A DNA stretch of 64,000 bases from Candidatus Dormiibacterota bacterium (GCA_963743835.1 CAVUQX010000004.1:706560-770559), one strand, 5' to 3'; shown: positions 10,288-33,726, counted from the first letter of the stretch. Program-made: numbers and translations. Notes: generated from the letters alone by a model not told the origin.

Positions 10288-11244
10288 ATGAGAGTTCTAC
10301 TCACCGGAACCGCCCGGTGCGGGAGCACATGGGCGGCGAACGTTCTCGGACGTGCCGACGGTGCGCGGGCGGTGTTCGAGCCGGACGGCCCCGCGTCGGA
10401 CGTGCTCGGCGCCATGGTGGCGGCGCGGCTGGGCTCGCATCCCGCGCTGCTGCCGGACCAGCGCAGCTTTTGGTACCGGCAGCTCTGGGACCTGGCCTTT
10501 GTAGGCGGCTGGCCGATGGCTCGCGCGGAAGGCGTGCGCGCCGCCGGCCGGCGCGTCTCGCGCATGCCCAAGGGGATCCGGGATGGTCTGGTGGCGACCC
10601 TCGCGATGGGCACGAGCCGGCTCCGCAAGCGTCCACGCAACGTGATCGTCAAATCGGTGAACTCAACCTTCTCGCTGGATTGGATCGCGCGGCGTTACGC
10701 GCCAAAGATGGTGATCATGCGGCGCAATCCCCTCAACACCATCTCCAGCTGCGCAGTGCTCGGTCTCTACGCCAAGCGCAACATCGGCGATCTCTCCGCT
10801 GTCAATCGTCTGGTGGTCGCTCCGCTCGGGATGACCACGCCAGGTGACGATGCATCAGAGGTGACCCGGGTTGCGTGGAACGTCGGACTGCTCACCACTG
10901 GGCTCAAGCAGGCTGCGGACCTTCACCCGGAGTGGGTCGTCGCCTCCCATGACGACCTCTGCCTCGACCCGTTGCCGAAGTTCGAAGCCCTCACCCGGCA
11001 GCTCGGGCTTGGCTGGACCGGGGCGATGGAGGAGTACGTGACCAAGTCGGACGACCCCAGCTTCACAGTGTTCGGCGGCAGCCAGCGAGTGCATCCAAAC
11101 GCGGCAACGTCGACAACCGGCAGTAGCCGGAGGAGCGAGGCGACCACGCAGTTCGCGCGCCGGCTCACGCCCGCGCAAATCGCGGAGGCGCGGTCCGTGC
11201 TTGCCGAGTTCCCGCTCGGCGACTGGGGACCCGAGGCCTACTGA
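10288..11244 (+). CDS. PAPS-type sulfotransferase, clade A (ST1)
   Basis: MRVLLTGTARCGSTW (5'-phosphosulfate-binding-loop-like), VIMRRNPLNTISS (3'-phosphate-binding-motif-like), HPEWVVASHDDLCLDP. The ATG is 13 nt after the upstream stop. It aligns full-length to the 24462 and 32770 copies. Confidence 0.8.
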   Translation: MRVLLTGTARCGSTWAANVLGRADGARAVFEPDGPASDVLGAMVAARLGSHPALLPDQRSFWYRQLWDLAFVGGWPMARAEGVRAAGRRVSRMPKGIRDGLVATLAMGTSRLRKRPRNVIVKSVNSTFSLDWIARRYAPKMVIMRRNPLNTISSCAVLGLYAKRNIGDLSAVNRLVVAPLGMTTPGDDASEVTRVAWNVGLLTTGLKQAADLHPEWVVASHDDLCLDPLPKFEALTRQLGLGWTGAMEEYVTKSDDPSFTVFGGSQRVHPNAATSTTGSSRRSEATTQFARRLTPAQIAEARSVLAEFPLGDWGPEAY

Positions 11245-11247
11245 ACG

Positions 11248-12261
11248 TCAGCGCGCGTCGCCGGCCATCTCCGGTTGACGCTCTGGCGCGCGGATCCATC
11301 CGCGCGATGGGTACTGTGCCAGCACTCGTTCGATCTCTTCGAGTTGCTCTTCGCTGAGGCGCTTGCGCCACCGGTTCGGTTGTTCGCGGGTGACACGGAT
11401 GTGGCTGAACCCTTCGCCTGGGCGGTTGGATTCGGTGAGAAACCGTTCAATACCCTCGCTCCACGTCAAGCCGACCTGGTCACACACCTCACGGATCCGC
11501 ACCAGCGGGTCGACACAGAGTTCCTCGTGGGTGACCAGCAACCACTCGGGGTGACGCTCGACGTGGCCGCCGAGCACCGTGGTGAGCAGACCGACCCACG
11601 CCGCGGTTCTCTCGGTGACGCTCGCGTTCGCGTCTGGCGCACTGATGCCCAGCGGTTCGAGATAGCGCTCGCGGATCGCGGGCCGGTCGAACAGGTCGAA
11701 CCCGTGAACCCCGAGCTCGATCCACGAGGAGATGGTGTTGAGCGGATTGCGCTGGATGACCACCACGCGTGGCTCGTAACGCCGCAGCAGCCATTCGACG
11801 TAGAAGTGCGCGTAGATCGATTTGACGAGCACGTGCGGTGAGCGTCCCGGAAGCGCCGACATCGCCTGAGCGGTGCGCCGCAGCAGCGGGTCGCGGATGC
11901 CGCGGGGCAGACGGAGTGCGGCACGGGCGGCACTCCGTCGCAAGCCCGGCTTGTTGGGCACACGATCGCTGAAGGAGAGGTCCCAGAGGGCGCGGAACTG
12001 CGGGGCCTCCTCGTCGCGCCCGATCATCGGGTACGGGCCAAACCCAAAGCGGCTCACACCGGTCCCGGTCGGGTCGGCATCGACGTTGTCCGGCTCCTTG
12101 ACGACGCGCGTCGCGTCGGCATGGCCGAGCGCGGTCGCCAGCCAGCGGGTTCCCGAACGAGCGACGCCGAGGAGCAGGACGCGGTCCGGGCGTCCTGGAA
12201 CGATTGATTTCGGAGCGAGTTCGGTCATGGGCAACGGGTCTCCTGGTGCGATCTCATTCAT
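11248..12261 (-). CDS. PAPS-type sulfotransferase, clade B (ST2)
   Basis: MNEIAP..VLLLGVARSGTRW, VVIQRNPLNTISSW, HPEWLLVTHEELCVDP. ATG 12261 overlaps the stop of the upstream TPR ORF (ATGAATGA). I do not believe the 490-aa ORF-track version, which is an Arg-rich extension overlapping that gene. Confidence 0.8.
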   Translation of the reverse strand: MNEIAPGDPLPMTELAPKSIVPGRPDRVLLLGVARSGTRWLATALGHADATRVVKEPDNVDADPTGTGVSRFGFGPYPMIGRDEEAPQFRALWDLSFSDRVPNKPGLRRSAARAALRLPRGIRDPLLRRTAQAMSALPGRSPHVLVKSIYAHFYVEWLLRRYEPRVVVIQRNPLNTISSWIELGVHGFDLFDRPAIRERYLEPLGISAPDANASVTERTAAWVGLLTTVLGGHVERHPEWLLVTHEELCVDPLVRIREVCDQVGLTWSEGIERFLTESNRPGEGFSHIRVTREQPNRWRKRLSEEQLEEIERVLAQYPSRGWIRAPERQPEMAGDAR

Positions 12262-14335
12262 CTTTTTTTGCTGTCTCGATGTACGCTTTGATGCGCGCAC
12301 GCGTGTCAGGCGCGGGGCCCGGAAGCGCGCCCAACGCCTGGTTGAAGGTTCCGACGGCTGCCCGCGTCTGACCGAGCTGGATCTGAATCCACCCCTTCGC
12401 AGCGAGGAGGTTCGACAAGCCGAACCCGTCGACTCCCGCTGTCTGGGTGTACGCGTTCGCATTGCCGATGAAGTTGGCGATCGCGGAGTCGATGCCGGTG
12501 AGAGCGGCTCCCGGGTCGCCCAGGGCAAGGTTGGCTTCCGCAAGGTCGTCGTAGGCCCCCGATCCCGAGCTCGAGTTCGCCGCCGCGCTCGCGCAGTCCG
12601 TGAGCGCGAGCGCGTATTCATGCCGGAGCACCTCTGCCTGGCACTCGTGAGCGAGCACCTGCGTGTTCTCTGTCTTGGTGAGCGCATCGGCCAGTGCCAG
12701 TTCGTAGTCCTGGTCCGCAAGCGTCAGGTTGCCGGTGGCGGTGGCGAGGTCACCACCCGCGACGTAGAGCAGCGAGGTCCCCGGGTCGAGCAACTGCGCG
12801 CGTTGATAGACGGTCCGGGCGTCGGCGAAATCGGAGATCGCCACGAGCCCGTCGATGGCGGTGAGCTGTTGGGTTGCGGTCGCTGAAGGAATCAACGCAG
12901 CGTGCTTGTAATCGGCCGTCGCTGCGGCGACGTTACCGATGACGCGGTATGCAACCGCTCGGCGAAGATAGAGGTCGGGACTCCGTGGCGACAGCGCGAT
13001 CGCCTCTGAGTAGTCGTGCACCGCGGCCCCGCCATTCTGTCCGCCGTTCAGATAACAATCGCCGCGACCGACGTATGCCGCGTAGTACGAGGGGAATTCC
13101 TGGAGGGCCTGCGTGTAATCGGCGATGCACAGGTCGGGTTGCCGGGCCGCACGTTGCAGGCGCGCGTCGTCGATGGATGATCCCAGAACGCTTGTGCTCG
13201 GTGCGACAGCGCCGGCCTGTTGTGCTTGCGTGATCAAATTCTGGAAATCGCCCGCGGACTGGCCGCATGACGCCAGTATCAGTGCGCCGGCAACTGCAAC
13301 CGATGCGACACCCGCGCCCACCCGCGTGGGTGTCTGCGGGACCGCCGGCTCCGGCGCATGCGGCTCTTCGCGCTGCTCGTCAGTCGGCTCGCTCCGGGCT
13401 CCGAAGCCGGCGATGAAGCGCACCGCGACGGAGAGAAGCAGCAGGGCGATCGCCACGCCGCCGTAGCCGATATCCACCGAGTACGGATCGGGTGCCACCG
13501 CGACGACGGCGAAGATGGACGGGACACCGAACCACTCGAGCGCCATCGCCACCGCTGTCACCGCCAGCATCGCCAGGCCGATGCTGCCGATCCACGTGGC
13601 GAGGCGCGACGGCGGAAAGGTCGCCTCTCGTGTTGGGACTGATGTTGCAGTGGCGAGGTCACGGAAGCGGCGGGGCACGCGAACCGCGAGCCAGATGGTT
13701 GCGACGAGCACGACGAGTGCGATCCCCTCTCCGATTCGTTCATATGGAAGTGTCGAGTACGTGAAAGAGAGCGTGGGAGAGGAACTCTGCGCGCTGTCCA
13801 GGTGGTAGAGGTTGAACAGGCCGTCGCCGAGACTGACGGGCTTGTGCGTATCGAGCCGCCACCCAGGGTCGTAATACCGGCGGAGTTCGACCCACTTCCC
13901 GTTGACGGAGTTGGTCGACGCTGTGATCTGCTCGTCAGTCGAGGTGAGCGTGATATCACTCACCGCGGTGGTGCGAACACCGAGGGCGGTGGCTGTCAGG
14001 GATGACCAGCTCAAGCACGGCCCGAGGGTCACCGCACTGGAGGTCGCGGTGGCGGTGACAATCTTGTTGGTGCCGCTGGTCGCCTGGAATGGGCCGTACA
14101 GGTTCCAGCCATTGGCCCTGGGAAGACCCTGGCCTGTAAGCAGTGGCAAGGACAGCTGTCCGCCGTTGATGGCGAGCGCTATCGACGGAGCCGTCGTCTG
14201 CGCCATCACCGCCGCAGTGCCTGCGAAGTCGGACAGGCACGTGTTGTTGACGTAGGGGAGTACCGACACCCTGTCGGGAAGGTTCGCCGGAGCGACGGGG
14301 TACTGGTTGTTGTCGAAGCTCTCGCGATAGGCCAC
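12254..14335 (-). CDS. C-terminal part of giant envelope protein: extracytoplasmic domain, 3 TM helices, TPR-like domain
   Basis: The frame stays open upstream of the listed GTG and reads ..ATPEILPALEALNIPVAYRESFDNNQYPV.., continuing the 13956..16196 membrane protein. TM helices include IALVVLVATIWLAV and LATWIGSIGLAMLAVTAVAMAL. A lipobox-like LILASC lies at 13265-13282, followed by ~335 aa of TPR-like A..Y..A(I/L)...P repeats. Confidence 0.65.
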   Translation of the reverse strand: MAYRESFDNNQYPVAPANLPDRVSVLPYVNNTCLSDFAGTAAVMAQTTAPSIALAINGGQLSLPLLTGQGLPRANGWNLYGPFQATSGTNKIVTATATSSAVTLGPCLSWSSLTATALGVRTTAVSDITLTSTDEQITASTNSVNGKWVELRRYYDPGWRLDTHKPVSLGDGLFNLYHLDSAQSSSPTLSFTYSTLPYERIGEGIALVVLVATIWLAVRVPRRFRDLATATSVPTREATFPPSRLATWIGSIGLAMLAVTAVAMALEWFGVPSIFAVVAVAPDPYSVDIGYGGVAIALLLLSVAVRFIAGFGARSEPTDEQREEPHAPEPAVPQTPTRVGAGVASVAVAGALILASCGQSAGDFQNLITQAQQAGAVAPSTSVLGSSIDDARLQRAARQPDLCIADYTQALQEFPSYYAAYVGRGDCYLNGGQNGGAAVHDYSEAIALSPRSPDLYLRRAVAYRVIGNVAAATADYKHAALIPSATATQQLTAIDGLVAISDFADARTVYQRAQLLDPGTSLLYVAGGDLATATGNLTLADQDYELALADALTKTENTQVLAHECQAEVLRHEYALALTDCASAAANSSSGSGAYDDLAEANLALGDPGAALTGIDSAIANFIGNANAYTQTAGVDGFGLSNLLAAKGWIQIQLGQTRAAVGTFNQALGALPGPAPDTRARIKAYIETAKKDE

Positions 14336-16196
14336 GGGGATGTTGAGCGCTTCGAGCGCCGGAAGGATCTCGGGAGTGGCCCACGTTCCTGAGTTCGACC
14401 TCCGCGACGGCAGGTGCGGTCGTGATGGCGGGTTGCGGTGAGCTCATCCGCCAGACCCAGATCGAAGTCGACCCGCTCCCCAGGATCATCGGCGACCCGA
14501 ACATCTGGCTCATCTGCTCCTGCAACCAGGCGCGCGTGATCCCTGTCGGGAGCGAACCCTCACCCTGCCCTCCGGGAACCACGACGTACCCGGCCCCCGC
14601 CATCTGCACGAGGTAGGGGAAGAGGTGTGGGTCCACGTAGCAGTACGCGATGACGTTGTCAGGGCAATACAGCTGGAACGGATCCCGCTGGTTGGTCCGG
14701 CTTCCCCCGAACTTGCCGGTGAGATTCACCGCCGGGTGTGTCGGCGATGCGATGAGGAAGTGGTGGTTGTGGATGCTGTTGCCCACCAGCGGTTGACCGA
14801 ACCAGAGCACCGGCCCGGGACGCGCGTCGGCAGCGAGAATCCGGGAGAACGCCACGTAGGCCGCGGGCTCTGGCGTTGGTTGCGTCGTCGATCCCAGCGC
14901 GCCGCTCTGCAGCACCACCACCGACCACCCGCTCAACGCAACGACACCTACCAGGGCAAGTACAGCGCCGGCTCGAAGCATGCGCGCCCGCAGCGCCGGA
15001 AGATGCGCTCCGACCCACTCGAAGGCGCCCGCCAATGCAATCGGAATGAGGATCGCGTATGCCAGCATGACGATGTACAGGAACTTCGATCCTTCGCGGA
15101 ACAGCTTCCATCCAGGGACGTGGATGTACATCCAGTCGTAGACCCCCCCGAGCGGGGCGTTGTCAGTCTTGGCAAAGAATGCGAAGAGCAGCGCCGCGAC
15201 CACGAGCCAGAGCACCTCAGGACGCATTCGACGAGCAAGGACCGGCGTCAGCGCAAGCAGCGGCAGGATCATATAGGCGGGATTCAGTGGCGCCTGGACA
15301 AGCTGCGCCGGGGTGCTGCCGGTCCAGAAGGCATCGACACCCGTGATGCCGTGACCGAGCGTGAGGACGTTGAAGTTCGGTGCCTGAGGAATCGGCAGGC
15401 CGACGCCGCCGTGGTAGGTCAGAAGCGGAACAAGCCAGAACGCCTGGAGCCCGACGAACACTGCGCCGGCGACGGCGCCCAGCGCAGTTCGGCGCAGAAA
15501 GGTCTGCAAGTTCCGGTCGGCCACCGAGACGATGACGAAATACATCGCCATGAGCAGGACGCAGAGATAGGCGGGACGAACATCGTAGAGTGCGACGACC
15601 GAAAGCAGCAGACCGGTGAACAGCGCCCAGCGAAATGAGAGCGTACGCACGGTCTTGAGGAAGGCGATCAGGACGAAGAACGAGACGATCTCGCCGAGCG
15701 CCAGCGGCACCTCACCGTCCGATTCGAGTATGAAGTACGTGGAGCCGAGGAGCAGTACGGGGGTCAGCAGCGCCCACTTGGTACGGCCCATGATCTCGCG
15801 CGCCAGCAACCAGCCTCCAACGGGAAGCAACACTGCGAACGGGACGAAGTAGAGCAGTTTTTCCGTGACGGTCCAGCCGGCTCCGAGAACGGCAAAGAGT
15901 CCCGCGATCGCATAGATCGGGAATCGGAACGCGGCCGAGAAGCGGTTCTCTCCTCCCAGGCCAAGCGAGCTGTCCCATACCGAGGGCCACGGGCTGTAAT
16001 TGGCGAGCACTGGATTGTCGGGCCAGTGCCAGTCTCCCGCAGAGAGCGGATTGGTCGACAGCCACGCATGTCTGATGCCGAGGCCAACAAGTGCGAGCAC
16101 GACCACCATCGCCCAGGGACGGTCCGAGATCCAGCGACCCTTCTCGGTCAACCATGCGACTGCGCGACTGCCTCGAACGGTCAATGCTCGGCTCAT
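13956..16196 (-). CDS. N-terminal polytopic membrane part of the same protein (GT-C-like glycosyltransferase/polymerase candidate)
   Basis: It has 12 or more hydrophobic helices with large loops, organised like GT-C-fold envelope glycosyltransferases. I cannot make a motif-level assignment by eye. Below about 14390 this frame becomes Arg/His-rich nonsense. An indel at the CCC run 14380-14382 or at AA/TT 14394-14395 would join it to the 12254 frame. Confidence 0.55.
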   Translation of the reverse strand: MSRALTVRGSRAVAWLTEKGRWISDRPWAMVVVLALVGLGIRHAWLSTNPLSAGDWHWPDNPVLANYSPWPSVWDSSLGLGGENRFSAAFRFPIYAIAGLFAVLGAGWTVTEKLLYFVPFAVLLPVGGWLLAREIMGRTKWALLTPVLLLGSTYFILESDGEVPLALGEIVSFFVLIAFLKTVRTLSFRWALFTGLLLSVVALYDVRPAYLCVLLMAMYFVIVSVADRNLQTFLRRTALGAVAGAVFVGLQAFWLVPLLTYHGGVGLPIPQAPNFNVLTLGHGITGVDAFWTGSTPAQLVQAPLNPAYMILPLLALTPVLARRMRPEVLWLVVAALLFAFFAKTDNAPLGGVYDWMYIHVPGWKLFREGSKFLYIVMLAYAILIPIALAGAFEWVGAHLPALRARMLRAGAVLALVGVVALSGWSVVVLQSGALGSTTQPTPEPAAYVAFSRILAADARPGPVLWFGQPLVGNSIHNHHFLIASPTHPAVNLTGKFGGSRTNQRDPFQLYCPDNVIAYCYVDPHLFPYLVQMAGAGYVVVPGGQGEGSLPTGITRAWLQEQMSQMFGSPMILGSGSTSIWVWRMSSPQPAITTAPAVAEVELRNVGHSRDPSGARSAQHPRGLSRELRQQPVPRRSGEPSRQGVGTPLRQQHVPVRLRRHCGGDGADDGSVDSARHQRRTAVLATAYRPGSSQGQWLEPVRPIPGDQRHQQDCHRHRDLQCGDPRAVLELVIPDSHRPRCSHHRGE

Positions 16197-16205: not shown

Positions 16206-17570
16206 CTAGGCCGGTGCATTCGCCATGAGCCCCTTGCCGCCAGGATCGTCGATGGTCGGTCCGTCGGCGGCGGCCGCGAGCAGTCGCTGCCGCCGCTCCG
16301 TCAGGAGGTATTGCACGGCGAGTGCGACGAGGACCGCTGCGATGGCGATGTCGCTCATCAGCGAGACCACGAACAGTGAACTGTGGAACAGGTAGATGAG
16401 CAACGGCTTGATCAGCGCCCCGGGGATCAGCACCCAGAGGAGGTTGAGGTCGGCAAGCGACTGTTGTGTGTTGCTGAGCATCACTACTGCGGCCAGCAGC
16501 GGCATGCCCAGCGCGTACCAACCGATGTAGCCGGCCCCTCCTTCGTACGACTTTCCCGAGAAGTCATGAAGGATGCTCGTGCTGAGCAGGGAGAACACGA
16601 GCAAACCGAGCAGCCCTCCCACCAGCGCGATGCCTACGGAGGTGAACACCACGGACTTCGTCCCGCGCTGCCGGGCATGACGCGCTGCGACCTTGGGGAA
16701 GAGCACGCTCGTCACGCTTCCCATCGCGAAAAAGAGTGCGCGCGCCGTGACCGTGACCGCGCTGAATTGACCCGCCGATTTGCCCGGGTAGAAGTGCTGC
16801 ACGAGGACGACGTCGCTGCCGAGCAGCACCGATACGGTGATGGTGGACGTGACCGACACGAGCAGGAAACGCCACAGGGGCTTCCAGCCGGTGACCCCGC
16901 GCCCGCGACGCATCCGCGGCCAGACCATTGCAAGGGCAATGAGATAGAGCACCGCCGCGGCAACGCTGATGCCGAGCATGACCCCCTGCGGGCCGAGCCA
17001 GAAGGCGAAGATGATGACGAACACGACGCGGCTCAGGGCGATCCCAATGCTCAGCGCGCTCCAGGGTATCCAACGTTGTTCGCCCTGGAGGGAGGCGAGC
17101 ATTGGCGACGTGGCGAACATGAACGGCACTCCGACCGCGCCCACGATGACGTACGACAGGGGCACCGCCAGGTAGCTCGCGAGCAGTCCGCCTCCGATGA
17201 TGAACACAAGCCCGAGCGCGGTGCCGATCAATGTCAGCCGGCGGATCGTCATGCGCAACAGAGCGCTGCTTTCCACATCCGTGCCCTGTTTGGTGGCAAG
17301 TTCGCGGCTGGTCGTCCATGCGACCATCCGGCTGAAACCTGCCGCCGGCTGGGTCAGGACGGTGAAAAAGCTGAAGACGGCGAACACCTCGCCGTAAAGT
17401 CGCGGATTGAAGTGATGGCTGACCAGCGCCTGGAGCAGCAGCCCCAGCACACCCGCACCCCACGTTCCGGCGGCGGCCACGGCATTGTGCGTGATGAATT
17501 GACGGCGTTCGCGCTTCGCGCCCTCGTGCGAATTCACGTGCGTGCCTGCGGCATCATCGGAGTCACTCAT
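16206..17570 (-). CDS. Wzx-like oligosaccharide flippase (polysaccharide biosynthesis protein, MOP superfamily)
   Basis: About 12-14 TM helices in the typical MOP/Wzx layout (..VFAVFSFFTVLTQPAAGFSRMVAW.., ..SAGQFSAVTVTARALFFAMGSVTSVLFPKVA..). The likely start is ATG 17570 (MSDSDDAAG..). The stop is 9 nt before the next gene's start. Confidence 0.7.
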   Translation of the reverse strand: MSDSDDAAGTHVNSHEGAKRERRQFITHNAVAAAGTWGAGVLGLLLQALVSHHFNPRLYGEVFAVFSFFTVLTQPAAGFSRMVAWTTSRELATKQGTDVESSALLRMTIRRLTLIGTALGLVFIIGGGLLASYLAVPLSYVIVGAVGVPFMFATSPMLASLQGEQRWIPWSALSIGIALSRVVFVIIFAFWLGPQGVMLGISVAAAVLYLIALAMVWPRMRRGRGVTGWKPLWRFLLVSVTSTITVSVLLGSDVVLVQHFYPGKSAGQFSAVTVTARALFFAMGSVTSVLFPKVAARHARQRGTKSVVFTSVGIALVGGLLGLLVFSLLSTSILHDFSGKSYEGGAGYIGWYALGMPLLAAVVMLSNTQQSLADLNLLWVLIPGALIKPLLIYLFHSSLFVVSLMSDIAIAAVLVALAVQYLLTERRQRLLAAAADGPTIDDPGGKGLMANAPA

Positions 17571-26372: not shown

Positions 26373-27374
26373 TCAGGATGGTCGGGCAGATGAGACTCCG
26401 CGAGGCCTGACCCACCCGCGATTCGGGAAAGTCGCGAGAATCGTGCGCAGCTCCGACTGCTGGTCTGGTGTCAGCCGCGTGCGCCATGCGTCGACCTGTT
26501 CGCGCCGCACACGGTTCGCCTCCTGGGTGCCCACGACAGCCGCCGTGAAGGTGTTCTCTCCTCCTCGAAAGAGCGGCTCGATGTACCCGCCTTCGCGGAG
26601 GTACTTTTCGGTTGCCGGCGTCCAGATCAGTCCGAGGCGGTCGTAGAGATCACCAAAGCGCGTCTCCGCGGCTTCGCAGAGATCGTCGTGAGTGGCAAGA
26701 ATCCAGTCGGGATGCCGGTCAACCAGCGACCCCAACTGGGTCGCGAGCGCGCCAATCCACCAGCCGACCATCGTGACGTTCGAGGCGCCATGCGGCGGAG
26801 GCTCGACGCCGAGAGGCCGCAGGTGGCGTTCGACAATTGCCGGGCGCCGGTGCACGTCGAAGGCGTCGACGTTGAGACGAAGCCAGCTCGACGCGATGTT
26901 GAGCGGATCGCGCTGAAGCACGACGATATTCGGGCGAAACCGTTCGTAAATCCACTCAACCGAGAAGTGGGCCATGACCGACGACACCACGACGTGAGAT
27001 CGGTGCGGGGCCACCGCACCGAGCCCGCGGGCGGCAACTTTGAGCAGCGGATCGCGCACCGGACGAGGAAGTCGAAAGACGGCGCGGGTCACTCGCCTCC
27101 CCCAGCCGCGCCGCAACGCCAGTGCTCGCCGTCCCTGGAATGCGAGATCCCACAGCGCTGCATATTGGGGGGCGGCGTCGCCGGCCTCGAGAACCGGGTA
27201 GGGGCCGAATCCGAGTCGCGTCACCCCGGTCTGCGCCGAAGCGGCCGTATCGACGTTGTCCGGCTCACGAACGAACGACGTTCCCTCGGCGCACGAGAGC
27301 GCGCGCAGGGTCCAGGTGCTGCCGGACCGCGGCGAGCTTACGACGAGGACGCGGCTTGCTCCAGGATCGCTCAC
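26373..27374 (-). CDS. PAPS-type sulfotransferase, clade B (ST5)
   Basis: VLVVSSPRSGSTW, VVLQRDPLNIASSW, HPDWILATHDDLCEAA, C-terminal WRTRLTPDQQSELRTILATFPNRGWVRP. It starts 51 nt downstream of the sorting-signal protein gene. Confidence 0.8.
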   Translation of the reverse strand: MSDPGASRVLVVSSPRSGSTWTLRALSCAEGTSFVREPDNVDTAASAQTGVTRLGFGPYPVLEAGDAAPQYAALWDLAFQGRRALALRRGWGRRVTRAVFRLPRPVRDPLLKVAARGLGAVAPHRSHVVVSSVMAHFSVEWIYERFRPNIVVLQRDPLNIASSWLRLNVDAFDVHRRPAIVERHLRPLGVEPPPHGASNVTMVGWWIGALATQLGSLVDRHPDWILATHDDLCEAAETRFGDLYDRLGLIWTPATEKYLREGGYIEPLFRGGENTFTAAVVGTQEANRVRREQVDAWRTRLTPDQQSELRTILATFPNRGWVRPRGVSSARPS

Positions 27375-27425: not shown

Positions 27426-28295
27426 CTACGGGGTTGGCGGCGAAGGCCAGCGACGCGAGCTCCGCACGATCGCCGCGATACCCAGACCGACGAGGCCCAA
27501 ACCAGTCAGCGGCAGCATGATCCCGCCGGACCCGGTCCCGGGGGTCGTGATGCCCTGGACACCGCCGACCGGAGTTGGCGAGCTGGTCGCGGGAGATACC
27601 GACCCGGTGGGACTCGGTGTTGCTGTAGGAGTGGGAGTAGGTGTGGGAGTCGGCGTGGTGCACGCCGACGACCGGTCACCGACCTGTCCATCCACCCAGC
27701 GATGCTCCGAACGGTACTGGCCGATGGTCATCGTGGTCAGCGGTTCGCCGTAGATGAGATCAACCTGAAAGGCGCAATCGGGCACATGCACGGTGAGCAC
27801 CTGCGTCGTTGCCGTGAGGCAGGGATCGCCCGGCGTGGTGGGATCGGTTCCCGCGCTGTAGCTCGCGCAGTCGAACAGGTTCTGTTGTGAGGTGCTGCTC
27901 GACGCTGTATTGCTGACCAGGGTGATCTCGGGTCCCGCCGCTCCGGGCGCCGGCGTCGCAGGCGCGAGGGTGAAGTGCGCTGTGACGATGTCCCCCGCAG
28001 AAACGTTGCCGAATAGCGTGCATACCGTTGTGGTCTGCCCCGCATGCTCAATCGCGAACCAGTAGCTCTCCAGGACCTTGTTGGTCGAGTTGGTCGGATT
28101 GTTGAGGTTGGCTTGATGACCGCACGACGGCGCCGTCGGGGCCGAGCTGGCGTGCCGAGCCGCGGCTTGTACCGGCAACATGCCAACCGTCAAGAGGAAA
28201 ACGCCCGCAGTCAGAATCGAGACTGCGCCGGCTCGACGCAGCAGAACTCCCGCCCGGACGCCCATGTGATCTCCTCCAGTGCATTTCCGCCACAC
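27426..28295 (-). CDS. Surface protein with Thr/Pro linker and C-terminal LPXTG-type sorting signal
   Basis: N-terminal signal (..AGVFLLTVGMLPVQAAA), an unknown ~180-aa domain and a TPTPTPTPTPTATPSPT linker. The C-terminus is GGVQGITTPGTGSGGIMLPLTG-LGLVGLGIAAIV-RSSRR (LPLTG + hydrophobic stretch + basic tail). Confidence 0.65.
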   Translation of the reverse strand: MWRKCTGGDHMGVRAGVLLRRAGAVSILTAGVFLLTVGMLPVQAAARHASSAPTAPSCGHQANLNNPTNSTNKVLESYWFAIEHAGQTTTVCTLFGNVSAGDIVTAHFTLAPATPAPGAAGPEITLVSNTASSSTSQQNLFDCASYSAGTDPTTPGDPCLTATTQVLTVHVPDCAFQVDLIYGEPLTTMTIGQYRSEHRWVDGQVGDRSSACTTPTPTPTPTPTATPSPTGSVSPATSSPTPVGGVQGITTPGTGSGGIMLPLTGLGLVGLGIAAIVRSSRRWPSPPTP

Positions 28296-28376
28296 GTTGA
28301 AACTTTCGGGGCGTATGGAGCGTGATCATATGCTAGGCGGACCCAAGAACTCAACCGCAACCTCCCTAGGAGACAA

Positions 28377-29225
28377 GTGAAGACAGACCAAGACGAGGCG
28401 GAACCCATGGAATCGACCTGGAGTGATCATGAGGTTTCGCGGCAGATCGCAACCGAGGCCGGACACCTCCTGGTCGGGCTACGAGACTCGGTGCCCGAGT
28501 CCGTCGACGAACGCTGGCTTCGCGACGAGGGCGATGCCCGCTCCCACAGGATGATCATGGATCGTCTCGCCGAGCTGCGTCCCGATGACGCGATCCTGTC
28601 GGAGGAAGGCAAGGACGATCAGGTGCGTTTGAGGCACCAGCGCGTCTGGGTGATCGATCCTCTGGACGGCACCCGAGAGTTCGGGGAACCGCCACGCGAG
28701 GACTGGGCCGTCCATGTTGCCCTGTGCGTCGATGGAGAACCGGTTGTCGGTTCGGTGGCACTCCCAGCGCAAGGGCGCGTCTTCACCACGGCCGGGGCAT
28801 TTCCGGACCCAACCGACGACACGCATCCGCTTCGGATGGTGGCGAGCCGGACGCGAGCGCCCTTGATCGTCAGCGAGGTTGCGTCCGCCCTCGGCGCGGA
28901 ACTGGTCTACATGGGCTCGGCAGGAGCCAAGGCGATGAGTGTCGTGTCGGGTGATGCCGACATCTACCTCCATGCGGGCGGTCAGTACGAGTGGGATTCG
29001 GCCGCGCCTGTGGCTGTCGCAATGGCCGCGGGATTGCATTGCTCTCGTATCGACGGATCGCCCCTCGTCTATAACCAGGCCAATCCATACATGCCAGATC
29101 TCCTCATCTGCAAACGATCCATTGCGACGACGGTCTTGGCGCTCGTGGCGGCGCACGCTGATCCCACCCACACAGATTCCAATCCGGTCGCCCCAGGGAG
29201 TGGCGTCGGAACGCATGGTGTATGA
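28377..29225 (+). CDS. cysQ: 3'(2'),5'-bisphosphate nucleotidase (PAP phosphatase), IMPase superfamily
   Basis: AGGAG RBS 6 nt before GTG 28377. It has LSEEG, VWVIDPLDGTREF and EWDSAAP, the three IMPase/CysQ metal and substrate motifs. The DPLDGT(R/K)EF variant is typical of CysQ. Confidence 0.7.
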   Translation: MKTDQDEAEPMESTWSDHEVSRQIATEAGHLLVGLRDSVPESVDERWLRDEGDARSHRMIMDRLAELRPDDAILSEEGKDDQVRLRHQRVWVIDPLDGTREFGEPPREDWAVHVALCVDGEPVVGSVALPAQGRVFTTAGAFPDPTDDTHPLRMVASRTRAPLIVSEVASALGAELVYMGSAGAKAMSVVSGDADIYLHAGGQYEWDSAAPVAVAMAAGLHCSRIDGSPLVYNQANPYMPDLLICKRSIATTVLALVAAHADPTHTDSNPVAPGSGVGTHGV

Positions 29226-29348: not shown

Positions 29349-30435
29349 ATGAGAAGGCAAACGCTGCTTCGTAGAACTCCTGATTGCCGCCGGAGTCGTG
29401 GTGGTGCTGGCTATCGTCGCGTTCGGACCCACCGTCCTTTCCCACTTCACGAAGGCAAAGGTGAACCCGCAACTTGCGACGGTCGAACCACGGACCTTCA
29501 ATGTGCTCGCGTCCGCTGCTGGTGTGCTTCAGCCGGCGAACCTTCAGAACGTCAACTTCACGATCTCCGGAACGGTGCAGGCGGTGAACGTGTCGGTCGG
29601 TGAGAAGGTCAACGCAAAGCAGCTCCTTGCCTCGCTCAACGACAGCACGCAGCAGGGGGAGTTGAGCGCTGCCGAATTCGCGGTGAGCGCGGCCGATGCG
29701 GCCATCCTCCAGGCTGAAGCCACCGGATCCGCCGCGCAGGTAGCCCAGGCGAGAGCGCAACTGGCCAACGCTGACGTCAGTCTGACCACCGCGCGTGAGC
29801 ATGAGGCCGAGACGAAGCTGTCGGCGCCCGAGACAGGGACCGTCCTTGCCGTCAACGGTATCGTGGGCGATACCGTGAGCGCCGGAAACTCCGGCTTCAC
29901 CAGCCCGGTGAGCAATGGTGGATCGGCGATCGCCAACGGGTTCATCGTCATCGGCAACAGTGCACAGTTCGATTTCTGGGCCCCGTTCAGCCAGACCGAG
30001 GATGTGCAGCTGACCTCGGGCCAGGCAGCGATCGTCACGGTCGATGCACTACCCGGGTCGGCGTTTCCGGCGAAGGTCTCCATCATCGAGCCGAGCGCCA
30101 CTCAAGTCGGTGGGGTTTCCGAATACTATGCCGAGATTCAACTGAGTACGACTGACCCCCGGCTGCGAAACGGTCAAACGGGATCGGTCAGCGTGACGGT
30201 CGCCACTGCGAGCAGCGTGCTCGCAGTGCCGTCGACGGCGCTCTTCACGGGCCCCAACAACCAGACCCAGGTCGACGTCTGGTCCCAGGGACAGGCATAC
30301 GCGACGACAGTCCAGATCGGATTGGTTGGCAGCACGCTGACTGAGATCAAATCCGGCCTCACGCAGGGCGAGCAGGTCCTGCTGTCGCCGAGCGGGCTGA
30401 CCCAGCTCCCGGCAGCCTCGCCCTCGCCGACGTGA
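29349..30435 (+). CDS. Periplasmic adaptor / membrane-fusion protein of MacA/HlyD type (probable frameshift near start)
   Basis: The body in frame 29398..30435 has a TM anchor (VVVLAIVAFGP), lipoyl-like GTVQAVNVSVGEKV and ..APETGTVLAVNGIVGDTV, and a coiled-coil region. GGAAGGA RBS + ATG 29349 is in another frame. Dropping one A of the AAA run at 29359-29361 gives MRRQRCFVELLIAAGVVVVLAIV. Confidence 0.65.
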
Positions 30436-30470
30436 CCGCGCAGATACGTTGAGCCTGTCGCCTCGCAGTC

Positions 30471-31151
30471 ATGATTGAGCTTGCATCGGTCGGCAGAACA
30501 TACGGCAGCGCTTCGGCCCCGGTTACGGCGCTCCGCGATGTGAACCTGTTGATCCAGCGCGGTGAATTCGTGGCGATCGTCGGGCCATCCGGCTCGGGGA
30601 AGTCGACACTGCTCAATCTGATCGGCTGCCTCGATCAGCCAACGTCAGGGCGCCTCCTGTTTCTGGGCGAGGACACGAGCACGCTGAACGACACCAAGCT
30701 TTCTCGCATCCGCAATCGCTCGATTGGATTCGTATTCCAGATGTTCAACCTGGTTCCCGAGTTGACGGTGTATGAAAACATCGAGCTGCCGCTGGTGTAT
30801 GCGGGAGTGACTCGAGAGCGCCGAGCCCTCACAACCAAAGTCCTCGAGCGCGTCGGCATGGCACACCGCGCCGACCACCCGGCGAGCCTGCTGTCGGGAG
30901 GTGAGCAGCAGCGCGTTGCGATCGCGCGAGCGCTCGTGAACGACCCTGCGCTGATCCTGGCGGACGAGCCGACCGGCAGCATCGATCCCGACAGCGCAGA
31001 GCAGGTGATGGAGCTCCTCGGCGAGTTGCATGACCAGGCCCGGACAATCGTGCTGGTGACCCACAACATGTCGGTTGCCGCCGTCGCCCAGCGGGTGGTA
31101 CGTATAGAAGGCGGAACCATCAACGAGATCGGGCGCAGCAGTGCGGCCTGA
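30471..31151 (+). CDS. ABC transporter ATP-binding protein (MacB/LolD/FtsE type)
   Basis: Walker A GPSGSGKST, Q-loop, signature LSGGEQQRVAIARAL, Walker B LILADEPTG, H-loop VTHN. Confidence 0.9.
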   Translation: MIELASVGRTYGSASAPVTALRDVNLLIQRGEFVAIVGPSGSGKSTLLNLIGCLDQPTSGRLLFLGEDTSTLNDTKLSRIRNRSIGFVFQMFNLVPELTVYENIELPLVYAGVTRERRALTTKVLERVGMAHRADHPASLLSGGEQQRVAIARALVNDPALILADEPTGSIDPDSAEQVMELLGELHDQARTIVLVTHNMSVAAVAQRVVRIEGGTINEIGRSSAA

Positions 31152-31205
31152 CGATTGCGCGGAACCGGCTGGGGTGATGCCGGCTCCGGACTGGACGCAC
31201 CTGCG

Positions 31206-32438
31206 ATGAAGGTCCGCGACGCGATGCTGGTCGCATTCCGCGGCCTGACCCGTCATTGGGTACGCGCCACGCTCAATGTCCTCGGCATCGTGGCAGGCGT
31301 CGCGTCGGTCATCATGCTCGTCTCGGTAGCGCATGCAGTGAGCAGCACCGCCAAGGCGTCGGTCGAGGGTCTCGGCGCAAATCTGGTGGTGGTTTATCCG
31401 TCGGGTCCCTCCTCATCAGGTATCCAGCGAGGCATTGGCGGCACGTCGAGCCTGACCCGCAGTGATGCTGACGCGCTCGGTAATCCAGCGAACGTTCCCG
31501 ATGCGGTTCAGGCCGTTCCGACCGCGGGGGTCAGCCAGAACGTCGTCGCGGGCTCGCATGCATGGCAAACCGATGTCCTCGGCAGCACACCGGGGTTCGG
31601 GGTCGCGCGCGGTTACACGGTGAGCCAGGGGCTGTCGTTCGGTCCGGCTGCGATCACCGCGGCGCAGCCCGTGGTCATCCTCGGCCAGACCGTGGCCAGG
31701 GAGATCTTTCCAACTGTCAACCCGATCGGCCAGACCGTGCTCATCAACACGCAGCAGTTCAAGGTCATCGGCGAGTACGCACCACGCGGATATTCCGGCA
31801 CGTTCAACCAGGACGATCTCGTGGTCATGCCGATCACGACCCTCTGGGATGAGGTTCTTCCCGCCAGCGCGGCCCAGATCCAGCAGATCCTCGTGCAGGC
31901 AACCAGCCCGAGCACCACGTCGAACGTGGCGGCCGAGGTCTCCAACACCCTGCTCCGACAGCACGGGATCACCGACCCTGCGCTCGCAGACTTCACCGTG
32001 CAAACGCAGCAGGACCTCGTGGCCAGCGCCGAGCGAGTGGGCACCGTCATGCAGTGGATGCTCGGTGCGGTGGCAGTCATCGCGCTGCTCACAGGCGGGA
32101 TTGGGATCATGAGCCTCATGCTCGCGACCGTCGGTGAGCGCGCCTATGAGATCGGTGTGCGCCGCGCGGTGGGCGCCAGTCGGGAGGACATCCTCGGTCA
32201 GTTCCTGATCGAAGCCCTCCTGCTCGCGGTGCTTGGCGCCATCGCCGGCATCGCGCTGGGGTACGGCGGCGCGACCTTCATGGGCGACGTCCTGACCGAC
32301 CTGCCGGCGCCGGTCATCACCGGCTTCGCCATACTCATCGCGGCGGGCGTGGCGTTGGTCATCGGTGTGGGCGCCGGGCTCTACCCCGCGGTCCGAGCCT
32401 CGCTGCTGCAGCCGGTGGAGGCCGTGAGGCGACAATGA
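31206..32438 (+). CDS. ABC transporter permease, MacB-like (MacB_PCD + FtsX domains)
   Basis: N-terminal TM (ATLNVLGIVAGVASVIMLVSV), a ~230-aa extracytoplasmic domain, and C-terminal FtsX-type helices (..ALLTGGIGIMSLMLATVGERAYEIGVRRAVGASR.DIL.QFL.EA..L). Confidence 0.85.
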   Translation: MKVRDAMLVAFRGLTRHWVRATLNVLGIVAGVASVIMLVSVAHAVSSTAKASVEGLGANLVVVYPSGPSSSGIQRGIGGTSSLTRSDADALGNPANVPDAVQAVPTAGVSQNVVAGSHAWQTDVLGSTPGFGVARGYTVSQGLSFGPAAITAAQPVVILGQTVAREIFPTVNPIGQTVLINTQQFKVIGEYAPRGYSGTFNQDDLVVMPITTLWDEVLPASAAQIQQILVQATSPSTTSNVAAEVSNTLLRQHGITDPALADFTVQTQQDLVASAERVGTVMQWMLGAVAVIALLTGGIGIMSLMLATVGERAYEIGVRRAVGASREDILGQFLIEALLLAVLGAIAGIALGYGGATFMGDVLTDLPAPVITGFAILIAAGVALVIGVGAGLYPAVRASLLQPVEAVRRQ

Positions 32439-32773
32439 GCGTCGCATCAATGATCAGGTTGCTCAATTTCTCGCGTTCGCCGGTGACGGCTGCGGCCGGG
32501 TCGGGCGTGATCATCCTGGCGGCCGTGGTCGGGGTGATCTTCGCGGCCGATAGTGCCGCCGCTCCCTCCAACGGCACGGCCGCTCAGTACACGGCCGCGC
32601 CGCTCAACCAAGCGCCGCTAGTGCTGCCAAAGCCATGCGTCGTCACCAAGAATCACCAGACGTGCGCCGCGAGGGCAGCCAAGCCGCACCGCGCGAAGCA
32701 GGTGACGAGGCAGCCTGCCCAACCGACTGCGCTGCCGGTGGCGACGGTCGCGCCGAACCCGACCAGCCCATGA
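32435..32773 (+). CDS. Small membrane-anchored protein of unknown function
   Basis: High third-position GC. The ATGA start overlaps the permease stop and the stop overlaps the ST6 start. One TM helix (GVIILAAVVGVIFAA), then an Ala/Pro-rich tail with a C-x8-C pair. I recognise no homology. Confidence 0.5.
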   Translation: MSVASMIRLLNFSRSPVTAAAGSGVIILAAVVGVIFAADSAAAPSNGTAAQYTAAPLNQAPLVLPKPCVVTKNHQTCAARAAKPHRAKQVTRQPAQPTALPVATVAPNPTSP

Positions 32774-33726
32774 AGGTGTTGGTCGCCGGGGCGGCGCGCT
32801 GCGGAAGCACGTGGGCCGCGAACGTTTTGGGACACGCCACGGGGACTCGCACCGTGTACGAGCCGGACGGGCACAACTCGGACGTGCTGGGAGCCGTCGC
32901 CGCAGCCAGGCTCGGCGAATACCCCGTCCTCGAGGCAGGCGCCTCCAGCTACTGGTACCGGCTGATCTGGGACCTCGCGTTCGCCGGCGGGTGGCCGTGG
33001 GACAAGGTCGAGTCAGCCCGTGCTGCGGGACGCCGGTTGGTGCATGTGCCGCCGGTGATGCGCGACTACCTCGTCGCCGGCCTGGCTGAAGGCACCCGTT
33101 TCACGCGCCGTCGCCCCCGCCACGTGGTCGTGAAGTCGGTCAACTCAATCTTCTCGCTTGACTGGATCGCGGAGCGGTACTCGCCGACGGTGGTCATCCT
33201 CCGTCGCAACCCGCTCAACATCGTCTCCAGCTGGCTGGTGCTCGGCATGTGGAGCGAGCATGCGATCGGCAACCATCCCCTGGTTCGAGAGCGATACCTG
33301 AGCTCGCTCGGTCTCCAATCGCCCAACGGCACATCGTCACCGGTGAGGATCGCTGCCTGGAACGTTGGCCTGCTGACGCGCGCCCTCAAAGACGCAGCCG
33401 ACCGCCACCCCTCCTGGATCGTTGCGTCGCACGATGAGTTGTGTCTCGACCCGATGACGAGCTTTCAAGCACTGACCGCGCGCATTGGCCTGCAGTGGTC
33501 GGCCGACATGGAGCAGTACCTCACCGAGTCGGAAGACCCCAAGTTCACGGTGCATCACGGCACGGTGAAGGTCCACCCGAACGCCGTCACCGCGACCACG
33601 TCGGGCAGCCGTCGTGAGCAGCAGGCGACCCAGTTTACGCGCCGGCTCACCCCCGCCCAAACCGCGGAGGCGCGGTCGGTCCTCGAGGCGTTCGATCTCG
33701 GCGATTGGGGACCTCAGACCGTCTGA
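32770..33726 (+). CDS. PAPS-type sulfotransferase, clade A (ST6)
   Basis: MKVLVAGAARCGSTW, VVILRRNPLNIVSSW, HPSWIVASHDELCLDP, C-terminal RRLTPAQTAEARSVLEAFDLGDWGP. I do not believe the ORF-track upstream extension from 32635. Confidence 0.8.
   Translation: MKVLVAGAARCGSTWAANVLGHATGTRTVYEPDGHNSDVLGAVAAARLGEYPVLEAGASSYWYRLIWDLAFAGGWPWDKVESARAAGRRLVHVPPVMRDYLVAGLAEGTRFTRRRPRHVVVKSVNSIFSLDWIAERYSPTVVILRRNPLNIVSSWLVLGMWSEHAIGNHPLVRERYLSSLGLQSPNGTSSPVRIAAWNVGLLTRALKDAADRHPSWIVASHDELCLDPMTSFQALTARIGLQWSADMEQYLTESEDPKFTVHHGTVKVHPNAVTATTSGSRREQQATQFTRRLTPAQTAEARSVLEAFDLGDWGPQTV

Follow-up and report, generated by a model that had tools for sequence, protein, structure and literature searches.

The present analysis concerns a stretch of 64,000 nucleotides from a metagenome-assembled genome (MAG) of Candidatus Dormibacterota (GCA_963743835.1, CAVUQX010000004.1:706560-770559; hereafter, the window, from the first letter of which all positions are counted). 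Our main subject is a gene island at 10288-33726 that encodes six paralogous sulfotransferases (ST1-ST6), predicted to use 3'-phosphoadenosine-5'-phosphosulfate (PAPS), along with glycosyltransferases (GTs), a candidate flippase and other proteins with likely functions at the cell surface. The island was singled out in an earlier note, made from the sequence alone, which proposed that it makes a multiply sulfated envelope glycan or glycoconjugate and attributed it to a monoderm-type, high-GC (Gram-positive) host. The latter attribution does not hold because the nearest proteins and loci come from MAGs of Candidatus Dormibacterota (AD3) recovered from palsa/peat and Danish soils, and not from actinobacteria; the two nearest loci share 96% (L013) and 93% (L001, PMOL01000005.1) DNA identity with the window over 21 kb. 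Dormibacterota are an uncultured sister phylum of Chloroflexota (PMC10608941). The GC content inside the island (0.63-0.68) is similar to that of the flanks, so that there is no sign of recent acquisition, and Rfam and tRNA scans of the window yielded no matches.

Six paralogous sulfotransferases

Clade A of the sulfotransferases comprises ST1 (10288-11244), ST4 (24462-25436) and ST6 (32770-33726), all on the plus strand, and clade B comprises ST2 (11248-12261), ST3 (17740-18693) and ST5 (26373-27374), all on the minus strand. The translations (318-337 amino acids (aa)) align with each other from end to end, with 31-60% identity over 88-100% of the length in pairwise BLASTP comparisons (E 3e-50 to 2e-141). 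A hidden Markov model (HMM) scan of all open reading frames (ORFs) of at least 230 aa in the window detected exactly six members of the family, which bears out the original claim of six full-length paralogues at these positions. The N-terminal loops quoted in the note are all exact (TARCGSTW in ST1, ARSGTRW in ST2, ARSGTSW in ST3, HRCGSTW in ST4, PRSGSTW in ST5 and ARCGSTW in ST6). The central motif, given there as RNPLN(T/I/V)(I/V)SSW, is correct for four of the six copies (RNPLNxxSSW), as is its RDPLNIASSW variant for ST5, but ST1 ends in SSC instead of SSW (RNPLNTISSC). In ST5, additionally, a Ser replaces a near-invariant strand Lys. None of the six proteins contains a transmembrane (TM) or signal segment.

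In profile searches, ST3 (41.7 bits, E 2e-10), ST4 (31.5) and ST2 (31.1) score above the cut-off of 27 for PF13469 (Sulfotransfer_3), and ST2 (26.7), ST3 (22.5) and ST5 (22.4) above the cut-off of 22 for PF00685 (Sulfotransfer_1), so that ST2, ST3, ST4 and ST5 reach the gathering score. ST1 (19.7) and ST6 (24.2) are just under the Pfam gathering score, yet they are full-length paralogues of the other copies with E<1e-50. An alignment of 36 homologues contains several invariant elements, namely R-x-G-x-x-W, E-P-D, R-x-P-x-N-x-x-S-S, a His and a C-terminal Arg. The first of these lies in the 5'-phosphosulfate-binding (PSB) loop x-R-[CS]-G-[ST]-x-W that is present in all six copies, with R, G and W invariant among the homologues, whereas the E-P-D triplet is located 21 residues after the loop Arg. 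The 3'-phosphate-binding (3'-PB) motif R-[ND]-P-L-N-x-x-S-S is likewise found in six of six copies, and R158, P160, N162, S165 and S166 (ST3 numbering) are invariant. The invariant His is part of an H-[DE]-[DE]-L strand-helix element, and the invariant Arg is part of a C-terminal W-R-x-R-L-[TS] motif. In PAPS-dependent sulfotransferases, region I corresponds to the 5'-phosphosulfate loop, region II to the 3'-phosphate motif (RNPKD..S in SULT1E1) and region IV to 'WKxxFT', and we take these to be the counterparts of the conserved loop, RNPLNxxSS and WRxRL(T/S) of ST1-ST6. Conservation of these three elements and of the Glu throughout the 36 homologues supports the assignment of the loop and the central motif to PAPS binding.

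A structural model was built with AlphaFold (AF2) for one of the copies, ST3, on the 36-homologue alignment (pLDDT 87.2, pTM 0.88), and has a five-stranded sulfotransferase core in which the PSB loop is located between strand 11-14 and helix 21-28, and the 3'-PB motif follows strand 152-157 at the start of helix 160-169. A Foldseek search of the PDB with this model gave 63 matches at E<=1e-3, and all of the best 50 have the sulfotransferase fold. Tyrosylprotein sulfotransferases TPST1/2 (TMq ~0.5) are on top, followed by Stf1, the sulfotransferase domain of olefin synthase, Stf9, plant SOTs and SULTs, with retinol dehydratase also present, and among the matches listed only structures with the sulfotransferase fold occur. 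In a profile search of the PDB, the PSB loop and the invariant Glu align with 'GVPRSGTT...GEE' of TPST2 and 'GVKKGGT...AEPHF' of 3-OST-3, in low-scoring segments. The catalytic base is a Glu in TPST and in heparan sulfate sulfotransferases, and a His in cytosolic SULTs; this low-scoring alignment suggests that the Glu, rather than a His, might be the catalytic base in ST1-ST6 as well. Thus, at the level of family and fold, ST1-ST6 are PAPS-dependent sulfotransferases, with their activity being predicted, whereas the Sulfotransfer_3 fold and the structural neighbors of ST3 do not predict the acceptor. Homologue and PDB profile searches revealed no characterized or solved close relative of the family, which in a wider sense includes 467 clusters at 50% identity with E<1e-30 and 2578 with E<1e-10.

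In a neighbor-joining tree of 60 family members (from the window and 17 related loci), the sulfotransferases form six separate orthogroups, and each copy in the window clusters with its positional orthologues from other species. The dN/dS values against orthologues are between 0.04 and 0.14 for all six copies (dS 0.1-1.3, relatives down to ~75% identity), and rise to 0.23-0.27 for ST2 and ST6 against the most distant locus, L011, which indicates that all six copies are subject to purifying selection. Given the six orthogroups and the low dN/dS, ST1-ST6 are old, individually maintained paralogues, and their separate upkeep is what would be expected if the copies differ in regio- or substrate specificity. 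Within 10 kb on either side of ST3, the range for which the related loci were extracted, the number of sulfotransferase genes varies from one (L014/L015 and a contig with P0107, described below) through three to five, and up to six in the window. The copy that is present in every related cluster, and thus constitutes the universal core member, is ST3.

Some metagenomic relatives show other arrangements. Two stretches each of P0206 (673 aa) and P0303 (711 aa) match the sulfotransferase profile; these proteins are probably tandem fusions of two sulfotransferases, and the double matches imply that duplication is recurrent in this family. In L018/L019, a distant family member adjoins two methyltransferases of the Methyltransf_21 (RfbT-like) family, with a Phosphoesterase gene a few genes away; judging by the gene content, this appears to be a further context of the glycan-tailoring type, in which the association between sulfotransferase and phosphoesterase seen in the window recurs.

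The core operon

ST3 and ST2 are encoded inside a tightly packed, co-directional string of minus-strand genes that runs from 23057 to 11248, in the order GT2-TM-GT4 fusion, GT2, GT4, ST3, Wzx-like flippase, GT-C/TPR giant, ST2, with intergenic distances from -59 to +169 nt; the start of ST2, the last gene, overlaps the stop of the preceding GT-C gene by 8 nt. The order and direction of these genes are as originally described, but the giant is split into two ORFs in the window. The association of the two sulfotransferases with this set of genes supports a role in glycan synthesis.

The first gene (20742-23057, minus strand) encodes a protein in which, according to Pfam matches and TM prediction, a GT2 domain is followed by four or five TM helices and a PimB/PimA-like GT4 domain. 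A synthase-dependent pathway operating through this fusion was considered and ruled out because the QxxRW motif is missing. The second gene (19838-20767, minus strand) encodes a GT2 enzyme (PF00535, E 5e-21) with heparosan synthase B and PglI as the nearest PDB matches, and the third (18859-19896, minus strand) a GT4 enzyme that matches Pfam Glyco_transf_4 (Glyco_trans_1_4 in an orthologue).

The gene downstream of ST3 (16206-17570, minus strand) encodes a candidate Wzx-like flippase of the MOP superfamily (~454 aa, ~12 TM helices). Its assignment to the MOP family comes only from homologues: an orthologue with 79% identity (P0148) scores 27.7 bits against PF01943, with the cut-off at 28.2, a distant homologue (P0205) matches PF01943, PF13440 and MurJ, and the family is named O-antigen/teichoic acid export membrane protein in IMG. 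Through these relatives the original reading of this gene as Wzx-like receives tentative support.

The giant (12254-16196, minus strand) is a predicted membrane glycosyltransferase of the GT-C fold. Its intact form has 1314 aa and consists of ~11 TM helices, a ~390-aa soluble domain, a second group of four TM helices and, at the C-terminus, TPR repeats recognized by Pfam. In the model of residues 1-600 (pLDDT 69.7), the best 27 Foldseek matches in the PDB (E<=4e-3) are all GT-C enzymes, with AftD as the first (E 5e-6, TMq 0.53), along with ArnT, AftA, STT3/AglB/PglB, ALG9/12 and PMT, and a near-invariant G54-D55-W56 triplet immediately follows TM1. Assignment of the giant to GT-C, which had been made from the sequence, is thus upheld, albeit by fold alone and with moderate confidence. 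In its overall layout and a YYDPGW element, the giant resembles AftD/YfhO-type enzymes. We also considered an STT3-type oligosaccharyltransferase, which is ruled out by the lack of the W[WYF][DE][YWF][GW] (WWDYG) pattern anywhere in the intact orthologue.

In the window, this gene is represented by two overlapping ORFs (12254-14335 and 13956-16196), caused by a 1-nt insertion, an extra A near 14395 (GTCGAACTC, compared to GTCGACTC in L013 and L001), whereas it is intact in L013 and in L014-L016. Many database orthologues are shortened as well (430-1005 aa), which suggests that this gene is prone to assembly or gene-calling errors. On a 56-kb contig that carries P0107 (JGI sample 3300047160), the flippase-like and GT-C/TPR parts form one product of 1824 aa; known from the gene product rather than from DNA, it looks like a gene fusion, which supports functional coupling of the flippase and the GT-C enzyme.

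Wzy, co-polymerase (PCP; Wzz/Wzc), outer membrane polysaccharide export (OPX) and Wzm/Wzt proteins were all absent from the scanned window products and the gene lists of the related loci; a highly divergent Wzy may escape HMMs, yet no unassigned polytopic membrane protein is left in the island. Of the Wzx-type glycan assembly system envisaged originally, therefore, a candidate Wzx-like flippase is present, but no Wzy, PCP/OPX or initiating phosphoglycosyltransferase was found.

Conservation of the neighborhood

The gene neighborhood is conserved in 13 related loci as well as in more distant lineages. The complete core order, from the GT fusion through GT2, GT4, ST3, the flippase and the GT-C gene to ST2, is retained in 11 of the 13 loci, those that span the core (74-96% DNA identity); L009 stops inside the GT-C gene, and ST2 is not seen in L003/L004/L007. 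The most divergent of the 13 is L011, where ST3 is 58% identical to that in the window and the genes are compactly arranged in the order ST6-permease-ATPase-adaptor-anchored protein-GT fusion-GT2-GT4-ST3-flippase-GT-C-ST2. This compact arrangement ties the ABC system and the anchored surface protein (see below) to the operon. Distant lineages retain the order GT fusion-GT4-ST-flippase-GT-C-MacB-adaptor-(GT2)-pectate-lyase-fold, and in those examined, MacB/HlyD and pectate-lyase-fold genes always accompany the core. L009 (DATLRX010000024.1, 11.6 kb) is labelled 'Candidatus Acidiferrales bacterium' (Acidobacteriota), and its copy of the cluster is ~80% identical in DNA to that in the window; mis-binning of a Dormibacterota contig is the probable cause.

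Accessory and flanking genes

The gene for a 3'-phosphoadenosine-5'-phosphate (PAP) phosphatase of the CysQ type lies in the middle of the island (28377-29225, plus strand), as originally noted. The best PDB match of this protein is M. tuberculosis CysQ (5DJF; E 1.1e-66, 228 bits, residues 13-258), followed by a match of only 58 bits, and the best NCBIfam model is TIGR01331 (126 bits, under the equivalog cut-off of 228.8); the similarity is convincing enough to predict a CysQ of the mycobacterial type. Its location in the cluster speaks indirectly for the predicted use of PAPS by the sulfotransferases. Next to cysQ, the genes at 29398-32438 (plus strand) encode a tripartite ABC exporter of the MacAB type, which consists of a HlyD/MacA-like adaptor, an ATPase and a MacB_PCD+FtsX permease recognized by Pfam and NCBIfam models. 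The exporter genes adjoin the core operon in L011, in L014/L015 and on the P0107 contig.

On the other side of cysQ, a 289-aa Thr/Pro-rich surface protein is encoded (27426-28295, minus strand) that is a candidate glycan acceptor. This protein, which matches no database family, starts with a signal/TM segment and a Cys-containing domain (~180 aa), continues with a (Thr-Pro)n stalk, the strictly conserved GGVQGITTPGTG box and an xPxTG-like motif, and finishes with a TM helix plus Arg-rich tail. Thr/Pro-rich stalks are classic sites of O-glycosylation. The C-terminal signal is conserved in all 12 orthologues examined, and in L011 the gene immediately precedes the GT operon. The equivalent position in L014 is occupied by a gene for a protein that combines a very long Thr-rich stalk with LAFTG and a TM helix; homology between this protein and that in the window was rejected, with no significant BLASTP similarity, and the two are analogous only in position and architecture. 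Accordingly, an anchored Thr/Pro-rich protein or its analog is found by the operon in three divergent lineages.

A Big_3_5 surface protein at the right flank of the island (33942-35558, minus strand; Pfam) ends with the same signal, GVQGITTPGTG followed by a TM helix and Arg-rich segment, the box being identical in 12 of 13 positions to that of the anchored protein. In the orthologues of both C-termini (27426-27560 and 33942-34080, minus strand) from L001-L013, the GVQGITTPGTG box is strictly conserved and is followed by the TM helix and the Arg-rich tail. The three-part signal, which has no Pfam or NCBIfam match, may be an undescribed sorting/anchoring signal of Dormibacterota. That these proteins are canonical LPXTG sortase substrates is only partly tenable because the pentapeptide varies (LPLIG, LPIGG, VPFTG, LSPTG, VPIVG), whereas the box upstream of it is strictly conserved; no sortase or exosortase gene was found among the scanned window products.

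Several other genes accompany the sulfotransferases. Two of these encode proteins of the pectate-lyase fold (right-handed beta-helix), namely a secreted protein with an N-terminal hydrophobic segment and a weak match to Pect-lyase_RHGA_epim (6876-7898, minus strand; E 2e-4), syntenic in L004-L008, and a probable lipoprotein (23167-24306, minus strand; PF12708, E 1e-13), with an N-terminus that ends in ...LAVACGS, which is also present in distant clusters. A phosphoesterase of the PLC/AcpA family with a CarboxypepD_reg domain (8235-10274, plus strand; PF04185, E 1e-15, and PF13620, E 3e-15) is syntenic as well, as is, in most loci, a histidine phosphatase (25538-26335, plus strand; His_Phos_1, E 1.5e-44). 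The possible left flank is formed by a surface protein with Ig-like Big_3_5 repeats (1788-6604, minus strand; Pfam) encoded in two ORFs, 4103-6604 and 1788-4106. The repeat array (2870-6510, minus strand) includes ~12 tandem units of 327 nt (some of 312 nt), and a single 326-nt step sits exactly at the junction of the two ORFs, which probably belong to one surface protein of ~1600 aa split by a 1-nt deletion. The array also contains two 300-nt repeat pairs, 639 nt apart, with 100% identity, which must stem either from very recent duplication or from an artefact of the assembly.

The LCP ligase and the GT39 enzyme that had been reported as neighbors of the island are indeed encoded in the window, at 45211-46248 (LCP) and 42047-44152 (a GT-C gene with PMT_2 and YkcB_C domains), but they lie outside the island, 8-12 kb past the last sulfotransferase and behind unrelated genes (yaaH-family, acetyl-CoA synthetase and Tad pilin genes). 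Together with three Tad-type pilin/TadG-like genes (38631-42003) and a gene for a PD40-repeat protein (44157-45209), they form a cell-surface block (38631-46248), which borders on the sulfotransferase island without demonstrably belonging to it. Farther away, ~14 kb from the island, a GAF-GGDEF-EAL protein involved in c-di-GMP turnover is encoded (49198-51888) that could be relevant to the regulation of surface glycans.

Predicted pathway and alternative interpretations

The original suggestion of a multiply sulfated envelope glycan or glycoconjugate is supported by the families, motifs, fold and synteny described above, from which we infer the product itself as well as the substrate, order of steps, acceptor and topology. 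In our view, the island is probably a Dormibacterota-conserved cluster for the biosynthesis of a multiply sulfated extracytoplasmic glycoconjugate, by the following route. The cytoplasmic GT2 and GT4 enzymes, with their four GT domains, would assemble a short oligosaccharide attached to a polyprenyl-phosphate carrier, with the initiating enzyme encoded elsewhere. The six soluble, signal-less sulfotransferases would each sulfate a different position of the lipid-linked glycan at the cytoplasmic face of the membrane; because PAPS is cytoplasmic, sulfation must precede export. CysQ would remove the inhibitory by-product PAP, and the Wzx-like MOP protein would flip the sulfated lipid-linked glycan, after which the AftD/YfhO-like GT-C enzyme, with its TPR domain facing outward, might attach the glycan to an extracytoplasmic acceptor. 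Release or trimming could involve the MacAB-type exporter and the pectate-lyase-fold proteins. With regard to the acceptor, we lean slightly towards the Thr/Pro-rich anchored surface protein or proteins of the cluster, rather than a wall polymer or a free polysaccharide.

Several observations weigh against this scheme. The nearest structural neighbors of ST3 in the Foldseek search are tyrosylprotein rather than carbohydrate sulfotransferases. The flippase copy in the window matches nothing in Pfam or NCBIfam even at E<=5, the N-terminal domain of the giant has no match in the PDB, Pfam or NCBIfam by sequence-profile search, and the confidence of its GT-C model is moderate (pLDDT ~70, TMq <=0.53). 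The usual reaction of AftD/YfhO-type GT-C enzymes is the transfer of single sugars, with polyprenyl-monophosphates as donors, so that en bloc transfer of a sulfated oligosaccharide by the giant is speculative. Furthermore, the GT-C gene is frameshifted in the window; if this is not due to faulty assembly, this genome may not make the product. No initiating phosphoglycosyltransferase or nucleotide-sugar genes are present in the window or the fetched loci, and a motif scan of the window and 19 related loci revealed no sat, cysD, cysN or cysC motif and no credible match for APS (adenosine 5'-phosphosulfate) kinase, ATP sulfurylase, CysD or CysH.

Among the other interpretations, the one to be taken most seriously, although we consider it rather unlikely, is that the cluster makes a secreted or capsular sulfated polysaccharide similar to synechan. 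In that case, lipid-linked repeat units would be sulfated, flipped by Wzx and joined outside the membrane, with the GT-C/TPR giant acting as a polymerase or elongating transferase and the pectate-lyase-fold proteins and the MacAB-type exporter releasing or processing the polymer. Beta-helix (pectate-lyase-fold) enzymes are typical of exopolysaccharide (EPS) loci, and the secreted proteins of this type are conserved even in distant lineages. Moreover, the best match of the giant, AftD, is a polysaccharide-building GT-C enzyme laid out in the same way (11 TM helices, then a soluble domain and extra C-terminal TM helices), and the known bacterial clusters for sulfated glycans make polysaccharides (PMC8205485, PMC11766843). 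This interpretation is, however, hard to reconcile with the lack of Wzy, co-polymerase, OPX and Wzm/Wzt in the window and related loci, and with a set of only four GT domains without the QxxRW synthase motif; the TPR domain and the mucin-like anchored protein encoded nearby argue rather for a protein acceptor.

A protein acceptor leads to a more specific version of the glycoconjugate pathway, which we put forward as speculation. The product might be a bacterial 'sulfomucin' or proteoglycan-like surface, in which an oligosaccharide, sulfated at up to six positions while lipid-linked, would be moved by a novel AftD-like GT-C/TPR enzyme (sometimes fused to the flippase) onto Thr/Pro-rich stalks that bear an undescribed sorting signal. 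If true, this would amount to a phylum-wide envelope layer of sulfated O-glycoproteins without bacterial precedent.

The remaining interpretations appear much less probable. One is a sulfated glycolipid, comparable to mycobacterial sulfolipid-1 or to sulfated archaeal glycolipids, that would be made in the cytoplasm and then pulled out of the membrane by the MacB-type exporter in the same manner as heterocyst glycolipids are by DevBCA. The consistent linkage of a MacAB/DevBCA-like exporter to the cluster, the mycobacterial type of CysQ, an enzyme that has been linked to sulfolipid levels in M. tuberculosis, and the similarity of the GT4 domains to the lipid mannosyltransferases PimA/PimB would all be compatible with such a product. 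Nevertheless, the GT-C enzyme and the MOP flippase imply extracytoplasmic transfer from a lipid-linked donor, which would be needless for a free glycolipid; the island contains no acyltransferase, PKS (polyketide synthase) or lipid-tailoring genes, and DevB/DevC models of NCBIfam score far under their cut-offs for the exporter genes. We therefore regard a glycolipid as quite improbable.

Slightly less credible still is the possibility that the sulfotransferases modify a peptide or protein, for example by tyrosine O-sulfation as TPST or RaxST do, with the HlyD/ABC/MacB system exporting the product and the GT operon having a separate function. TPST enzymes are on top of the structural and profile matches, and ST6 adjoins the adaptor, ABC and permease genes both in the window and in L011, which recalls the raxST-raxA-raxB arrangement. 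The margin of TPST is small, however: TPST2, the best fold and profile match of ST3 (TMq 0.51, 14% identity, profile E 0.01), is followed by other sulfotransferases with TMq 0.40-0.49, and the Sulfotransfer_3 fold is not predictive of the acceptor. In addition, the transporter is of the MacB type, neither a peptidase-containing ABC transporter nor an obvious precursor peptide was found, the universal ST3 and ST2 are embedded among the overlapping or near-abutting genes of the GT/flippase/GT-C operon, and the lone sulfotransferase of the single-copy relatives is encoded between GT4 and the flippase. Finally, that the cluster is decaying or non-functional here, with the 1-nt insertion in the GT-C gene and the 1-nt deletion in the Ig-repeat surface protein gene creating pseudogenes and some sulfotransferases (such as ST5, with its RDPLNIASS motif and without the near-invariant Lys) being catalytically dead, is very improbable: all six copies retain the invariant PSB, Glu-Pro-Asp, 3'-PB and C-terminal residues under strong purifying selection, the orthologous GT-C genes are intact in L013 and L014-L016, and two single-base indels in 64 kb of MAG sequence could just as well be errors of assembly, to which the shortened GT-C orthologues common in database gene calls suggest this gene is prone.

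Relation to known systems

The glycoconjugate pathway proposed here follows the same logic as the glycosylation of the S-layer in Halobacterium salinarum, where a short oligosaccharide is assembled on a lipid carrier, receives its sulfate groups at the cytoplasmic face and, after flipping, is attached by a GT-C enzyme to a surface protein with a Thr-rich stalk and a C-terminal anchor signal. In haloarchaea, however, the transferase is AglB, an STT3-type enzyme with the WWDYG motif that the giant lacks, and the carrier system is based on dolichol; we know of no relationship between the archaeal sulfotransferases and ST1-ST6. The mycobacterial Stf0/sulfolipid-1 pathway similarly includes a cytoplasmic PAPS-dependent sulfotransferase that acts on a sugar and a CysQ of the same type that controls PAP, but it relies on a single sulfotransferase of another Pfam family, yields a trehalose-lipid product exported by MmpL, and involves no GT-C enzyme or flippase. 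With respect to the giant itself, TfpW of Pseudomonas aeruginosa, a GT-C enzyme with a periplasmic TPR domain, O-glycosylates the pilin encoded alongside it (bioRxiv 10.1101/2020.04.19.049825). In both proteins, a GT-C domain with 11 TM helices precedes an extracytoplasmic TPR domain, and the gene is located beside that of a protein acceptor (a candidate acceptor in the case of the island). TfpW, in contrast, is a 646-aa protein that transfers D-arabinofuranose, with no sulfation involved, whereas the 1314-aa giant has an additional soluble domain and four extra TM helices and is AftD-like, and no sequence similarity between the two was detected.

Among the bacterial clusters for sulfated glycans, the synechan xss cluster of Synechocystis sp. 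PCC 6803 (PMC8205485, PMC13125312) resembles the island in that PAPS-type sulfotransferases are encoded amid GTs and a Wzx-type flippase (a candidate flippase in the case of the island) for the production of an extracellular sulfated glycan. It differs in having two sulfotransferases of different subfamilies, instead of six paralogues of one subfamily, and in possessing Wzy, PCP and OPX (the latter elsewhere in the genome) and the XssQRS regulators, none of which are present in the island, which for its part encodes the GT-C/TPR enzyme, the MacAB-type exporter, CysQ and the anchored Thr/Pro-rich protein and belongs to another phylum. The cluster for the sulfated capsule of Cobetia marina (PMC11766843), a non-cyanobacterial example, also combines GTs, one or more sulfotransferases and cysQ for a sulfated surface glycan, but includes cysNC, cysD, a sulfate permease and the KpsMT/KpsSC ABC-transporter pathway, whereas neither PAPS-synthesis genes nor Kps are found in the island. 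The wps-1 cluster of Actinoplanes missouriensis (PMC13390465), which is terrabacterial and high-GC like the one described here, and for which a sulfated EPS or glycan is likewise only predicted, shares the Wzx-type flippase (a candidate in the island), but has two sulfotransferases of different families, Wzy and Wzz, and lacks the GT-C/TPR enzyme, CysQ and the MacAB-type exporter. The principle shared with these known clusters is the embedding of sulfotransferases in a glycan assembly locus. The island is set apart by the number and family of its sulfotransferases, by an unusual assembly logic (flippase and GT-C/TPR enzyme in place of Wzy/PCP, combined with a MacAB-type exporter), by the mucin-like anchored protein and by the phylum. 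With six paralogues, compared to two sulfotransferases each in xss and wps-1, the island has the highest sulfotransferase density among the compared clusters. A full-text search of the searchable library identified no paper that mentions Dormibacterota together with sulfotransferase, and nothing usable on the PAPS pathway or the envelope of Dormibacterota was found in the literature.

Implications

Although animals and algae depend on sulfated glycans for central parts of their biology, such glycans are considered to be rare in bacteria, and little studied there; they have been described as essentially cyanobacterial (PMC8205485, PMC13390465), with scattered marine exceptions (PMC11766843). 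The cluster analyzed here would extend sulfated glycoconjugates to an abundant uncultured phylum of soil and peat bacteria. For these organisms, which persist in cold, nutrient-poor soils, a surface that is polyanionic and strongly hydrated could be relevant to desiccation, freezing and acidity as well as to the binding of metals, and the six orthogroups represent a panel of probably regiospecific bacterial sulfotransferases for glycoengineering.

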